Below the pieces are notes generated by a model, which was not told the origin of the DNA, searched no databases, and saw only the letters and a program-made list of their open reading frames with translations. A DNA stretch of 20,169 nucleotides from a virus (Duplodnaviria > Heunggongvirae > Uroviricota > Caudoviricetes). Each line of letters begins with the position of its first letter. The stretch's first letter is position 1. Where the stretch lies: the IMG/VR virus record IMGVR_UViG_2695420632_000003, positions 1 through 20,169 of that record; one strand, 5' to 3'. Made by a program: the position numbers and the translations under genes. Shown one piece after another: positions 3,435-11,317 of this stretch.

Positions 3435-3738
3435 AATTAAAGAAATACCAGTAGTACGTGATGAATATGGCTGCTGGACGCATCCTGAATATGAAAAATT
3501 CTGTGACGGTCGGGAATATATTTCAACGGAAGAGTTTAACGCCTGGATGGAGGAAAATAATCTTCAATACGTCCTCTGCTTCAGAGATGAAGGATGTGCT
3601 GACCTTGATGCGTGTGATGCTGATATTTCTGCATGGGAACCGGAACGACCAGAGGGCAATGGATGGTTTATTGGTTCAATACATGACACCGAAGATGGCC
3701 CGGTTTGTGTATGGCTGAGAAATAAGGCCGAAGCATAA
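3427..3738 (+). CDS. Hypothetical phage protein (Cys/acidic-rich)
   Basis: ATG 3427 with GGGAGAACAG upstream, overlaps the previous gene end by 8 nt (translational coupling); 103 aa. Confidence 0.45.
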   Translation: MNEIKEIPVVRDEYGCWTHPEYEKFCDGREYISTEEFNAWMEENNLQYVLCFRDEGCADLDACDADISAWEPERPEGNGWFIGSIHDTEDGPVCVWLRNKAEA

Positions 3739-3866
3739 AGGCTATAAACCGACTAACAACTAAATACCGAAGATTTAAATCAGAAACGATTTTTATTAAA
3801 TCCTTAACCGGAGGGATTCCTGCACCCTCAGAACATCAGGAGGCCGTCCGAAAGGGCGGTAGTGAA

Positions 3867-4049
3867 ATGCGAAAATTCAAAATAATTATTGAAACGGGAA
3901 TAGCCGGTGGAGATTTCGAGGATGAATTCGAAGTGGATGATGATGCAACACCAGATGAAATACAGGATGAAGCTAAAGATATTTTCTTTAACTACTGCAA
4001 TTACTCATACCACGAAATAAAAGACGAAGAGGAAGAACAAAATGGCTGA
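3867..4049 (+). CDS. Hypothetical small acidic protein
   Basis: 60-aa ORF, highly acidic C-terminus; stop overlaps the next gene start. Confidence 0.4.
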   Translation: MRKFKIIIETGIAGGDFEDEFEVDDDATPDEIQDEAKDIFFNYCNYSYHEIKDEEEEQNG

Positions 4050-4218
4050 TTTTGGTTCAACTAAATATAACGCCAGTTTTGAAGAATGGCATGAACTGTT
4101 AATGGATTATGCAGAGTTACGCGGTGGAAGTGCCGCTGATGCTGAAGCATGGCGTGATGATTATGAAGCAGGGAAAACACCGGTCGAAGCATATTGTGAT
4201 GAGTGGGGCGATGAATGA
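4042..4218 (+). CDS. Hypothetical small protein (58 aa), not in supplied ORF track (<60 aa)
   Basis: Hand translation: MADFGSTKYNASFEEWHELLMDYAELRGGSAADAEAWRDDYEAGKTPVEAYCDEWGDE; start overlaps the upstream stop (ATGGCTGA) and stop overlaps the next start (ATGA): consistent with a coupled gene chain. Confidence 0.4.
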   Translation: MADFGSTKYNASFEEWHELLMDYAELRGGSAADAEAWRDDYEAGKTPVEAYCDEWGDE

Positions 4219-4574
4219 GCGAGATTAATTATCAGGAAGGGCATGAAAAGGCAGGGCAGGCAAAACCAGTGGCATGGCGATATCGCTACGTGAAAAAAGG
4301 CGTTACAGACTTTCAGGGGAAGCAGTGGGTTGGTGACTGGAAATATGTACCGACAAAAGAGGATTGCAACGACAGACCGAACTATGAAATTCAGGCGTTA
4401 TTCACTGCCCCGCCTGTGCCACTGACACCAGAAGGATTGATTAAAGCAGTGCGTTTCTATGAACAGGTAAAGCGTGAGAATCCGCCAGTCGAAACCGGAG
4501 CATGGAAAGACGCTGTTGACTGGGTGCTCAAAGAGGCTTGCCAGTCTGTAAACATTGGCATCAAAGGAGAGTGA
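4215..4574 (+). CDS. Hypothetical phage protein
   Basis: 119-aa ORF in the coupled gene chain; ends ...GIKGE followed by the repeated junction AAAGGAGAGTGA. Confidence 0.5.
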   Translation: MSEINYQEGHEKAGQAKPVAWRYRYVKKGVTDFQGKQWVGDWKYVPTKEDCNDRPNYEIQALFTAPPVPLTPEGLIKAVRFYEQVKRENPPVETGAWKDAVDWVLKEACQSVNIGIKGE

Positions 4575-4576
4575 GA

Positions 4577-5068
4577 ATGCAAATTTCACCGGTTACTCTT
4601 CGTGTTGCGAAGGCGTTTATATCCAGACATCACCGACACAATAAACCCCCGGTGGGGCATAAATTCAGCATTGGTCTGAGAAATGATGCCGGAGAATTGA
4701 TAGGTGTGGCGACAGCCGGTAGACCTGTTGCACGACATTTGGACGATGGATTAACGCTTGAAGTAAATCGCACATGTACCACAGGAGAACGCAACGCTAA
4801 CAGCGCGCTTTATGGTGCTGTCTGGCGGGCAGCAAAGGCTATGGGTTATCAACGTTGTATTACGTACACCCAGGCAGATGAATCAGGAGCATCTCTCCGC
4901 GCAGCTGGTTTTGTTCGTGTGAAAGAGCTTCCTCCAAGAAAAAGCTGGGCGGAATCAAGCGTCGCCCTGCGGAGTAAACGCGATCCGGTCGGAAACGGTG
5001 GTGTTCCTCGTGTGCTCTGGGAAATCAGGAGAATGAGTACCACTGGCATTCGCATCAAAGGAGAGTGA
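4577..5068 (+). CDS. Hypothetical phage protein; possible acyltransferase-like fold (weak inference)
   Basis: ATG 4577 with AAAGGAGAG SD (ORF track frame extends to 4538). 163 aa; bracketed by identical 17-bp junction sequences (4558-4574 and 5052-5068). Fold assignment is only an impression from the sequence pattern and is not supported by a canonical GNAT motif. Confidence 0.5.
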   Translation: MQISPVTLRVAKAFISRHHRHNKPPVGHKFSIGLRNDAGELIGVATAGRPVARHLDDGLTLEVNRTCTTGERNANSALYGAVWRAAKAMGYQRCITYTQADESGASLRAAGFVRVKELPPRKSWAESSVALRSKRDPVGNGGVPRVLWEIRRMSTTGIRIKGE

Positions 5069-5069
5069 T

Positions 5070-5333
5070 ATGGCAACTTTGACAAAAAAAGAACAAGCAT
5101 GGTTGAGCGAATTACAGGACGTTCTTGATCGCTGTCCATCACCGAAAAAAATTGGTTTTTACACCATTGGCGATAAAAGCATTTACCTGTATGACCTGCG
5201 CCGCATGGATGAAATCATGGAGGCTCTTGATAATCGTTCGTCGATGGATTGGTGTGTTGCTGTTCATGATATGAATGCAGGGTTTGATGAAAAGATTTTG
5301 TTCCCCTCATCAGTTGAAAGCACTGCGGGTTAA
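5070..5333 (+). CDS. Hypothetical phage protein
   Basis: 87-aa ORF, ATG 2 nt after the previous stop with the same AAAGGAGAG SD. Confidence 0.5.
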   Translation: MATLTKKEQAWLSELQDVLDRCPSPKKIGFYTIGDKSIYLYDLRRMDEIMEALDNRSSMDWCVAVHDMNAGFDEKILFPSSVESTAG

Positions 5334-5343
5334 GGAGTAACAC

Positions 5344-6246
5344 ATGACCACTATTACCAAAGAACGTATTGAATTGTTCATTAAAAATCCGCTTGAAAAC
5401 GGGCTTACCCGTGGTGAACAAATGGAACTGGCACGGATTGCGCTGGCATCGCTGGAAGCAGATCCAGTTAAACGAGTTAACTCAGATCAGATGCGCCGAG
5501 TCTGCTTAGAAGCTAATCGCCATTTAGATAAATATGACGCGATGGCGAAAGAGGTAAATAAGTTGCTTGGACGCATCGCCCCGCCAGCGCCGGTAGTGCC
5601 GGAAGAAGCAACTCCGGAAAACGTAGAAATGCTCTCTGGCTATGTTTCCACGTACAAATTAACCGATAGCGAGCGCGATATTGCTGCCGAAATATGGAAC
5701 GCCTGCCGCACCGCCATGCTTCAGTCCGGAAACTTTCGGGAAAGCAAGAATTCGTCAACCAATAATTTTCGGGAAATCCCGGAAGCGTCAACCAGCTCTC
5801 CGGTAACTCCGGCTCTTCTGCCTGGTGGTTTCACCATTGAGGAGGCGAAGGAATTACATGAAGACCTGGTACGCAGCCACATAAGCAAGGCCTTAAGTGG
5901 CGAAAAGATGAAAAAGAAAGATCGCGATGCTGATTTGCGCTGGATTCATGGCGTTATAGTTCAGGCAGCGTGGTTTGTAAAAGCATCACTGGAGCAGAAT
6001 GCACTATCGGGCAACTCTCCGGCAACTCCGGATGGTTGGATAAGCTGTAGTGAGCGAATGCCGAATACCAAAACAGCCGTTCTTGTTGCCGTGGAGTTTG
6101 ACAGGAAAGGTGACTGGCGAATGAAATGGGCTACTTACATCCCCGGGCATCCTGACGCTAATGATGGGTGGATAATTCCTGGTGCGTCGTGGAAACCGTC
6201 ACACTGGATGCCGCTACCAGAACCGCCGCAGGAGGTGAATCAATGA
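5344..6246 (+). CDS. Phage protein with C-terminal DUF551-like domain
   Basis: 300-aa ORF; C-terminus ...DGWIIPGASWKPSHWMPLPEPP matches my recollection of the DUF551 signature (W...HWMPLPEPP); Pro-rich linker in the middle. Confidence 0.55.
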   Translation: MTTITKERIELFIKNPLENGLTRGEQMELARIALASLEADPVKRVNSDQMRRVCLEANRHLDKYDAMAKEVNKLLGRIAPPAPVVPEEATPENVEMLSGYVSTYKLTDSERDIAAEIWNACRTAMLQSGNFRESKNSSTNNFREIPEASTSSPVTPALLPGGFTIEEAKELHEDLVRSHISKALSGEKMKKKDRDADLRWIHGVIVQAAWFVKASLEQNALSGNSPATPDGWISCSERMPNTKTAVLVAVEFDRKGDWRMKWATYIPGHPDANDGWIIPGASWKPSHWMPLPEPPQEVNQ

Positions 6247-6326
6247 GCTGGCCTGAAGCATTAACAACGGTAGGAATTGCGATGGCGGTGGCGCTGGTGG
6301 TGTATTCGATTTGCCGCTGGGGATAA
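6243..6326 (+). CDS. Small hydrophobic peptide (27 aa, single predicted TM)
   Basis: ATG overlaps the upstream stop (ATGA) and is preceded by a near-perfect SD AGGAGGTGA; translation MSWPEALTTVGIAMAVALVVYSICRWG. Confidence 0.35.
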   Translation: MSWPEALTTVGIAMAVALVVYSICRWG

Positions 6327-6537
6327 AAACGGTTTGCGGGAAAAGGAGAGTTAAGTAGAATTGCAGCGGGTGCTTGAGGCTATCTGTCTCAGGCATGAAC
6401 ACCAAAAGGCAGATAGAGAAAAGCCCCAGTTAACATTACGCGTCCGGCAAGACGCTTAACATTAATCTGAGGCCATATCTATGCTCTACACACGTAGGTT
6501 AGCCTCTTACGTGCCGAAAGGCAAGGAGAAGCAGGCT

Positions 6538-6761: not shown

Positions 6762-6787
6762 ACCCGCTTCGGCGGGTTTTGTTTTTT
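6762..6787 (+). terminator. Rho-independent terminator downstream of hok
   Basis: ACCCGC-TTCG-GCGGGT hairpin (UUCG tetraloop) followed by TTTGTTTTTT. Confidence 0.6.
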
Positions 6788-6859
6788 CCTAGCATTCTGG
6801 TTTACAATTCGCACACCAGCCTGAACAACTGGCACCTGCTGCGCCAGCAGAGACAACCG

Positions 6860-11067: not shown

Positions 11068-11143
11068 GGCCCTTTAGCTCAGTGGTGAGAGCGAGCGACT
11101 CATAATCGCCAGGTCGCTGGTTCAAATCCAGCAAGGGCCACCA
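11068..11143 (+). tRNA. ileZ: tRNA with CAT anticodon, ileX/ileZ-like (tRNA-Ile2, lysidine type) rather than tRNA-Met
   Basis: 76 nt, cloverleaf folded by hand: acceptor GGCCCTT/AAGGGCC, anticodon loop CTCATAA, T-loop TTCAAAT, encoded CCA; close to E. coli ileX as I recall it. Confidence 0.8.
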
Positions 11144-11150
11144 TCACATA

Positions 11151-11227
11151 CCGCCATTAGCTCATCGGGATAGAGCGCCAGCCTTCGAAGCTGGCTGCGC
11201 GGGGTTCAAGTCCCCGATGGCGGTCCA
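11151..11227 (+). tRNA. argN: tRNA-Arg (anticodon TCG)
   Basis: 77 nt; acceptor CCGCCAT/ATGGCGG, D-stem GCTC/GAGC, anticodon loop CTTCGAA, T-arm CGGGG-TTCAAGT-CCCCG, encoded CCA. Confidence 0.75.
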
Positions 11228-11240
11228 TTATCTGCATCAT

Positions 11241-11317
11241 GCGTTGTTAGCTCAGCCGGACAGAGCAATTGCCTTCTAAGCAATCGGTCACTGGTTCGAA
11301 TCCAGTACAGCGCGCCA
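11241..11317 (+). tRNA. argO: tRNA-Arg (anticodon TCT, decodes AGA/AGG)
   Basis: 77 nt; acceptor GCGTTGT/ACAGCGC, anticodon loop CTTCTAA, T-arm ACTGG-TTCGAAT-CCAGT, encoded CCA. Confidence 0.8.

Follow-up and report, generated by a model that had tools for sequence, protein, structure and literature searches.

What does an identical 17-nucleotide sequence do at both ends of a single phage gene? The question is raised by IMG/VR virus record IMGVR_UViG_2695420632_000003, whose positions 1 to 20,169 form the 20,169-nt window analysed here, a region of a Qin/Rac-type lambdoid prophage of Escherichia coli as identified from its Pfam matches and RefSeq context. The sequence GCATCAAAGGAGAGTGA occurs in it exactly at 4558-4574 and 5052-5068, on the + strand, with two copies in total, and these bracket a gene for a 163-aa protein. 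We argue that the 17-mer is the core of a conserved inter-gene linker, which probably couples the translation of neighbouring genes and serves as a crossover patch. The linker is the conserved 3′ end of ead/Ea22 genes, and the phages of E. coli and relatives that carry it are lambdoid, P22-like or, in some cases, P1-like.

The repeat stands out within its own window. Searching for further GCATCAAAGGAGAGTGA sites at up to two mismatches returned none in the 20,169 nt and none in 100 shuffles, and the pair is the sole exact direct repeat of at least 17 nt in the window. Together with its flanks the repeat reaches 22 nt with one mismatch, CATT[G/C]GCATCAAAGGAGAGTGA. Both copies lie at the junction of two open reading frames (ORFs) and belong to both partners. 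ORF 4215-4574 (119 aa) has the C-terminus ...VNIGIKGE-stop; ORF 4577-5068 (163 aa) has the C-terminus ...TTGIRIKGE-stop and is followed by an ORF that starts at 5070. The Shine-Dalgarno (SD) sequence AAGGAG at 4564-4569 leaves 7 nt to the ATG at 4577, the AAGGAG at 5058-5063 leaves 6 nt to the ATG at 5070, and the stop codons lie 2 nt and 1 nt ahead of these respective ATGs. The original prediction, made from the sequence of the window, had described identical 17-bp repeats at both junctions, with each copy giving an ...IKGE-stop to one gene and the SD to the next, and the window bears this out in every particular. The features concerned are as follows.

4215-4574, + strand: upstream gene, 119 aa, PHROG 660, ending ...VNIGIKGE-stop.
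4553-4574, + strand: linker copy 1, the 'IGIKGE' allele, with the 17-mer at 4558-4574, SD AAGGAG at 4564-4569 and TGA at 4572-4574.
4575-5068, + strand: exchangeable unit of 494 bp, made up of GA, the XF1762 gene and one linker copy; precisely missing in two other IMG/VR loci, L233 and L238.
4577-5068, + strand: cassette gene, 163 aa, XF1762 family, predicted Mom-like GNAT fold; core at residues 1-153 (to 5035).
5036-5065, + strand: linker-derived tail STTGIRIKGE, residues 154-163; relatives end at VLWEIRR.
5039-5068, + strand: linker copy 2, the 'GIRIKGE' allele, with the 17-mer at 5052-5068, SD at 5058-5063 and stop at 5066-5068.
5070-5333, + strand: downstream gene, 87 aa, PHROG 1714; about 10 different upstream gene tails precede its homologues in other phages.
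5344-6246, + strand: next gene, 300 aa; its N-terminus is of Ead/Ea22 type (..ELARIALASLEA) and its C-terminus is DUF551.

The 17-mer is widespread at gene junctions elsewhere. An exact-match scan found it at such junctions in at least 119 IMG/VR viral contigs, mostly as one copy each, and the sequences either side of it are highly diverse among contigs. In most copies conservation reaches about 10-13 nt further left (..GCCGCTGGCATTC, encoding ..AAGIRIKGE-stop) and rightward only through (T/G)ATG, and it is at background beyond ~30 nt leftward and 4 nt rightward. The linker consensus, 27-37 nt long, can be written (CGC)GCCGCTGGCATTC-GCATCAAAGGAGAGTGA-(T/G)ATG. Copy 2 in the window agrees over 30 nt with the common linker (G/A)CC(G/A)CTGGCATTCGCATCAAAGGAGAGTGA, and the 'IGIKGE' allele of copy 1 is seen again in other contigs. 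Matches to the 37-nt form were found in 375 GenBank phage records (103 at 99% identity or above), including Stx1/Stx2 phages, P22-like phages, phiV10 and lambda-type phages.

Far from being private to the XF1762 gene, the linker closes ea22 itself. The lambda-type ea22 gene (HK630 copy) has the 3′ end ..gacgctggcattcGCATCAAAGGAGAGTGA, which reads ..SDAGIRIKGE-stop and carries the exact 17-mer; hkaG of HK620, an ead/Ea22-like gene, ends with the exact 27-mer; and the same linker is found in the exo-xis/ea arm of lambda, HK620 and Stx phages. In the P1-like phage P7 (AF503408.1, 88982-89018; 1501-1537 of our locus L321), the Ead-like gene upf88.3 ends in the 37-nt linker at 100% identity, with upf89.0 directly after it. 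The linker therefore crosses from the lambdoid phages into those of P1 type. According to an earlier report, no recent exchange between these two groups was seen (PMC3945230).

Several further observations concern the linker's relatives and its matches. At equivalent junctions (for example in loci L160-L177, L184-L186 and L196-L197) other variants occur, among them AGIKEESE-stop, AGIKVEAE-stop, AGIKWEAE-stop, AGIGVKGE-stop, AGIVG-stop and AGITG-stop. The pattern 'AGI + 2-8 codons + stop + start' was counted 208 times vs 16 in reversed/complemented controls, in a sample biased towards these regions. At 1528-1560 of the lambda-type HK630 locus L280, after ea22, the post-linker sequence GATCGGTTTTGTAAAAGATAACGC is what remains of a short ORF that has lost its 5′ end; other phages have this ORF intact behind the linker (TATGAGCAGGAATACGGGTTTGTAAAAGATAACGC). 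The truncation leaves a 190-nt untranslated gap before ea8.5. A scan of genome contigs with the 24-nt linker GGCATTCGCATCAAAGGAGAGTGA gave 38 matches (L283-L320), of which ~32 are lambda DNA contamination of unrelated assemblies. These contaminants share 99.7% identity or more with the exo-xis region of lambda/HK630 and lie on contigs that are either short or ~48.4-48.5 kb long and of low coverage, in assemblies that include Streptomyces, Bacillus, Prevotella, Shewanella and Pseudomonas. The genome-contig matches that we judge genuine come only from Escherichia spp., Shimwellia and two probably mis-binned metagenome-assembled genome contigs.

If the linker is a site of exchange, the slot between its two copies should be found with other contents, or with none. 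Both are observed. Loci L233 and L238 match window 3795-4574 at 99.5% and 5047-5469 at 99.05%, with the 494-bp unit 4575-5068 precisely missing, and the overlap of 22 nt between their two alignments equals one linker. For a census of this slot, we took those fetched loci in which the tail of the upstream gene occurs together with the downstream gene, and counted them as distinct sequences. Six distinct sequences (L233, L238 and four others) are empty and hold one linker only, 21 hold the XF1762 cassette, five hold a cassette of 437-460 nt that ends ..INPYKEN-stop, two hold an Ea22-like 146-aa cassette also present in phage vB_EcoS-689R5, and one holds a three-gene filling. The XF1762 cassette also travels outside this setting, as it lies behind at least six different upstream genes and ahead of at least eight different downstream genes. 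The full occupied arrangement is present in 118 of 5,426 complete E. coli genomes, in a total of 119 records; a synthetic query of the upstream and downstream junction matches 193 records in complete E. coli genomes, a figure that pools occupied and empty sites, and the empty-site counts are accordingly taken from the IMG/VR loci. In the same slot, locus L179 (IMGVR_UViG_2874920711_000009) has an XF1762 copy 1 nt shorter, with a frameshift after ~33 codons, and holds a decaying cassette.

Empty and occupied sites alone are insufficient to establish crossing-over inside the linker. It is the combinatorial pairings that carry the argument. We clustered the 250-nt flanks of 121 occurrences of the 17-mer, leaving out the 30 nt left-adjacent to the linker. 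The loci were mostly ascertained via the linker, the cassette or the downstream gene, and include many related E. coli isolates. Among the matches listed, this gave 20 left clusters, 25 right clusters and 68 adjacent pairings, and after same-family clusters were merged, 14 left families, 23 right families and 62 pairings. The upstream proteins are unrelated apart from the tail. The left-right pairing graph has a cycle rank of 25-27, and because that many pairings are not explicable otherwise, re-joining at the junction itself is required.

The position at which homology ends is equally sharp. There are 83 pairs with left flanks at least 98% identical over 250 nt and unrelated right flanks, and 76 of these lose their similarity 0-4 nt past the end of the 17-mer. 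The converse comparison (right flanks alike, left flanks unrelated) covers 112 pairs, of which 105 lose theirs 0-16 nt ahead of the 17-mer. Breakpoints are confined to about 35 nt. When breakpoints against all fetched loci, a biased sample, were mapped onto the window, the bin 5040-5069 had the most distinct alternative upstream continuations, 23, and bins 4560-4589 and 5070-5099 were also among the top. A control anchored on the downstream gene gave ~8 upstream partner families for its 52 linker junctions (AAAGGAGAGTGA) vs 2 for the 27 junctions of another type, which end ..INPYKEN-stop or ..RINKEN-stop. The linker itself is found in chimeric alleles. It has two polymorphic segments, the first being GTAAACATT or GCTGGCATT and the second a G or C just ahead of GCATC, and every one of the four possible combinations occurs.

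The original prediction had taken the repeat for the kind of boundary sequence at which lambdoid phages swap gene modules, a reading that these pairings, the breakpoints, and the empty and alternative sites all support. It proposed that the 17-mer be sought at other gene junctions, and that genomes be sought in which the two flanking genes are joined by a single copy. Both exist: the at least 119 contigs and, for the longer form, the 375 phage records on one side, and L233 and L238 with their nearly identical flanks on the other. At least three other contents lie between the same two genes. The prediction would have failed had the 17-mer been peculiar to this window and its junction devoid of alternative cassettes, and what we found is recurrence and alternative contents.

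The cassette protein shows what the linker can do to the gene ahead of it. The homology and structure search that had been proposed for the 163-aa protein led to the XF1762 family and a predicted Mom-like GNAT fold. The protein matches NCBIfam XF1762_fam (NF045478) at 5e-61 (204.7 bits, cut-off 50), with residues 3-136 aligned to model positions 2-130 of 143, and the identical gene is labelled XF1762 family protein in RefSeq. It also matches PHROG 1384, 'Mom-like DNA modification protein'. The threshold of Pfam Mom (PF25680) is not reached, at 22.4 vs 27.1 bits; several close homologues carry a precomputed PF25680 match. A sequence search of PDB chains with the protein and the family profile gave nothing meaningful and no Mom match. 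The AlphaFold model has a predicted local distance difference test (pLDDT) score of 84 and a predicted template modelling (pTM) score of 0.77, and its top Foldseek match is phage Mu Mom (8bv8; E 2.5e-8, template modelling score 0.73), followed by many GNAT acetyltransferases.

From this model and these matches, we regard the 163-aa protein as a predicted Mom-like GNAT-fold protein. Mom is a GNAT that carbamoylmethylates adenine via glycyl-tRNA, and its helix-turn-helix (HTH)-like insertion (residues ~175-209) and catalytic R111, S124 and R151 are all essential for activity (PMC13219725). Phage Mu Mom has the closest PDB fold to the 163-aa model, a GNAT, but the 163-aa protein is ~70 residues shorter, and where Mom has the HTH-like insertion its model has a low-confidence loop (~119-144, with one short helix) between the strands at 113-118 and 145-151, the latter being the last. 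An anti-restriction role through DNA modification is a reasonable guess for this protein, and no more. The XF1762 case shows how a Mom-like gene of DNA-modification type moves among E. coli prophages.

The final residues of the protein are another matter. Relatives at 82-87% identity end ..VLWEIRR(MK/GV/AV)-stop at 153-154 aa, where the E. coli form goes on with STTGIRIKGE. In other relatives, further variants of the linker have been joined on at this position, such as ..VLWEIRRAAGIKWEAE-stop and ..VLWEIRSAAGIKVEVK-stop. Across 120 cluster representatives of this family of more than 5,600 proteins, the sequence after VLWEI[RK] is hypervariable, and the IKGE tail is found in only ~5. In the model, tail residues 157-163 have pLDDT below 50 and are predicted to be disordered. 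The last 10 residues are linker-encoded and foreign to the fold of the cassette protein.

We propose that these observations reflect a sequence with two roles. In mRNA, the linker provides the last codons of one gene (..AGIRIKGE), a stop and a strong SD 6-7 nt ahead of the next start, and its SD and stop would couple the translation of neighbouring genes, whatever their identity. In DNA, it is an identity patch between otherwise unrelated genomes, and crossovers in or at the linker would re-join left content to right content in working order. Since most phages carry one linker copy, a single crossover between collinear genomes would be the usual event. Unequal exchange between linkers at different positions could produce a gene bracketed by two copies, as in the window, and exchange between the two copies would remove that gene again, so that a bracketed gene would be intrinsically deletable. 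The XF1762/Mom-like gene gained the linker as a 10-residue C-terminal extension outside its fold. Joining would be by homologous recombination on short identity, carried out by host RecA or by phage annealases of the Red-beta, RecT, Erf or Sak type. Efficient pairing lengths of 23-27 bp for Red-beta and 31-34 bp for RecA have been cited, and Rad52-like phage recombinases drive mosaic formation on short, diverged homology (PMC3945230). The common linker, at 27-37 nt, falls within this range.

A number of points weigh against this proposal. It is from comparative anatomy that we infer the crossover mechanism. The two copies in the window share 17 exact nt, or 22 with one mismatch, which is below the quoted minimal pairing lengths, and because they share only 17-22 nt, local deletion and insertion between them would be inefficient. 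Alternatively, the ancestral state might be the empty one, with the cassette spreading mostly via crossovers in longer flanking homology. One part of the conserved sequence, AAAGGAGAG, is accounted for by the ribosome-binding site alone. The way in which the loci were ascertained inflates the raw counts, and we have relied on counts of clusters and of distinct sequences. Breakpoints also occur away from any linker, at 4410-4439, 5340-5369, 5460-5489 and 6780-6809, and the linker is one breakpoint hot spot among several.

How, then, might the repeat be explained without exchange at the linker? A chance repeat without meaning is the least credible account, and we give it next to no weight. About 0.01 such 17-mer repeats are expected in 20 kb by an arithmetic estimate, which is not astronomically rare, yet none arose in 100 shuffles, and chance would leave both the shared frame and junction role of the copies and their recurrence at hundreds of junctions unexplained. 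The same-frame placement at two gene junctions, together with recurrence at more than 100 junctions elsewhere, is decisive for a meaningful repeat. Convergence, in which gene pairs independently evolved a ribosome-binding site, a stop and a near start with no role for recombination, would fit the optimal spacing of AAGGAG, the stop 1-2 nt ahead of the next ATG and the purine-rich, SD-like cores kept by other linker variants (for example AAGGAGGAG and AAGGTGGAGG). An SD, however, needs 6-9 nt, and here identity spans 27-37 nt and takes in synonymous positions as well as GCTGGCATTCGCATC, a stretch without any function as an SD. The conserved sequence outside the SD already looks identical by descent among copies with unrelated flanks. 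With the tail also sitting beyond the natural end of the XF1762 protein, and flanks at least 98% identical changing partner exactly at the linker, convergence as the whole explanation is highly improbable.

Selection might instead act on the peptide, with ..AGIRIKGE (or '+GE') maintained as a functional tag for stability, targeting or interaction and the identity of the DNA arising as a by-product. All Ea22 proteins studied end in K/R-G-E (PMC7093339), and the 'AGI' motif recurs ahead of many variant tails. The tail is nevertheless attached to proteins of 14 or more unrelated families, most XF1762 orthologues lack it, it is predicted to be disordered, and conservation holds at the nucleotide level, third positions included; we consider a tag improbable as the primary function, although the peptide may hold a secondary role. 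A last possibility is the footprint of a mobile element, the copies being a target-site duplication or integron-like recombination sites, as the presence of two copies at occupied sites and one at empty sites might suggest. We consider this very unlikely. The two copies are different alleles (GTAAACATTG.. vs ACCACTGGCATTC..) rather than a duplicated target, the same cassette lies behind another linker variant (AAGIKEESE-stop) in other phages, and more than 100 junctions have a single copy. The 494-bp unit has no transposase or integrase inside it or next to it, and neither terminal inverted repeats nor a linker-acting recombinase was found. Both junctions, folded as single strands on both strands, lack hairpin potential (z-scores +0.08 to -1.16), and on these values an attC-like hairpin was rejected at both. 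A Chi site was likewise considered and rejected, as GCTGGCAT and GCTGGTGG differ at three positions.

Exchange at a translation-coupling linker thus remains our preferred explanation, and it has a bolder extension. The AAGI...GE-stop linkers might form a maintained family of 'adapters', the homologous-recombination counterpart of attC, with the core GCTGGCAT perhaps read by a phage recombination function. Variant forms (AGIRIKGE, AGIKEESE, AGIKVEAE, AGIKWEAE, AGIGVKGE and others) could then represent the family across phages of Enterobacteriaceae, and the products of the Orf, Rap, RusA or annealase genes present in such phages might be the recognisers of GCTGGCAT. We offer this as a speculation that is more likely wrong than right by some distance. 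If it were true, any gene with a linker would be pluggable, pre-coupled, into accessory operons throughout an entire pool of phage genes.

The wider setting of the slot bears on what kind of gene the cassette is. The region of interest lies in the rightward early operon, which begins with an O-like initiator, a DnaC-like loader, DUF1627 and DUF977 genes and small ORFs, and continues after the region with a DUF968/HNH gene, RusA, the Q antiterminator, a methyltransferase and tRNA genes. No + strand promoter-like sites were found across 3700-6455, and no terminator frames the 163-aa gene on the + strand; the sole + strand terminator-like match lies inside that gene's ORF, and counts equal the shuffle expectation. 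The guanine-cytosine content of the cassette gene is 0.51, vs 0.49 upstream and 0.42 downstream, in an accessory region that is heterogeneous throughout. Morons, as described by Juhala et al. (2000) and Hendrix et al. (2000), are autonomous transcription units that have a promoter and a terminator of their own. The 163-aa gene resembles them as an extra gene whose two neighbours lie side by side in related phages, as they do in L233, L238 and four other distinct sequences with an empty site. It differs in having no detectable promoter or terminator of its own, and in its coupling to the early operon, in which the replication genes precede it and Q follows. Because no promoter or terminator frames it, and because the gaps at its ends are 2 and 1 nt, the gene is a coupled member of the early rightward operon and not an autonomous moron. 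The original prediction of an 'acquired or exchangeable moron' was therefore right as to exchangeability, to which the empty and alternative slots attest, and wrong as to moron in the strict sense.

Other parts of the window are mosaic or otherwise distinctive. The last 148 nt of the upstream gene (from about 4427; the C-terminal 49 aa) behave as a separately exchanged module, with matches that start at 4427. In the gene at 5344-6246, mosaic breakpoints lie where the gene begins and just behind ..ELARIALASLEA, its conserved N-terminal segment of Ead/Ea22 type, and a further mosaic breakpoint off the linker lies at 3780-3809. A small ORF at 3867-4049 belongs to the DUF7167 family (Pfam, 1.2e-14); it is part of the same accessory array and shares 8 nt with the ORF that follows. 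Upstream of the linker region, genes are joined by ATGA-type overlaps in place of the linker. At 564-638, within the O-like initiator gene (223-1200), there are four copies of a 15-nt-spaced iteron (TTGACCCGTC-like), which are probably the replication origin of the prophage. Three tRNA genes at 11068-11317, downstream of Q and the methyltransferase, have a Met-type CAT anticodon, Arg-TCG and Arg-TCT; the tRNA matching the CAT-anticodon gene is annotated as Ile by RefSeq in E. coli YDC107, and the three-tRNA arrangement is typical of Stx-type lambdoid prophages.

The concept of boundary sequences is already known, as is the presence of the linker sequence in phage lambda. A search of the literature found neither the string 'IRIKGE' nor the name 'XF1762' in any paper searched. 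What may be new is the recognition that the tail of the ea22 family is a junction adapter of general use, for which dozens of partners are documented, together with an explanation of the '+GE' motif and a tail of this kind grafted onto a Mom-like protein. The linker illustrates a known model of how phages shuffle their genes, not a novel type of element, and is an unusually clean and abundant case for the homologous-exchange model. For annotators and structural biologists, the practical consequence is that many small prophage proteins end in 8-10 residues that come from a junction and do not belong to the fold.

Among known systems, the closest are the boundary sequences of lambdoid phages. 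The modular evolution theory of these phages reportedly goes back to Susskind and Botstein in 1978, and Clark et al. (2001; J Mol Biol 311:657) are said to have proposed seven short conserved boundary sequences for HK620 and its relatives. The linker may be among the seven. It shares with lambdoid boundary sequences a boundary location, alternative non-homologous flanks and coinciding homology breakpoints. Each is a short conserved sequence at a gene boundary, with alternative non-homologous modules, that has been proposed as a focus of recombination, and both occur in the same phage group, in which hkaG of HK620 ends with this exact linker. Unlike them, the linker lies within coding sequence and adds a peptide tail to the preceding gene, and it parts single accessory genes and not large functional modules. 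The modular theory and the boundary-sequence proposal have been summarised, as has the debate over the origin of mosaicism, which sets homologous exchange at short boundary sequences against random illegitimate joining followed by selection (PMC3233612). With empty, occupied and alternative states of one slot to hand, this debate is directly testable by standard lambda genetics.

Integron cassettes offer a second parallel. There, too, promoterless genes are arrayed with a junction element at each 3′ end, and the content of a slot can be exchanged. The linker junctions differ in having no attC-like imperfect palindrome and no integron integrase, and exchange would proceed by general or phage homologous recombination and not by a site-specific route.

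The third comparison is with the Ea22 proteins. Dydecka et al. (2020) reported that all of them end in K/R-G-E, the '+GE' motif, and stated its significance as unknown (PMC7093339). The sequence is the same one, since the lambda-type ea22 ends ..SDAGIRIKGE-stop with the exact 17-mer. That work, however, treats the motif as a feature of Ea22 proteins (PMC7093339), whereas here it also ends genes that are not ea22, including one for a predicted GNAT-fold protein. At the level of codons, the '+GE' tail is best read as AAA-GGA-GAG-TGA, the triplets into which the junction's ribosome-binding site and stop fall, and these codons account simply for the '+GE' tail of Ea22 proteins.

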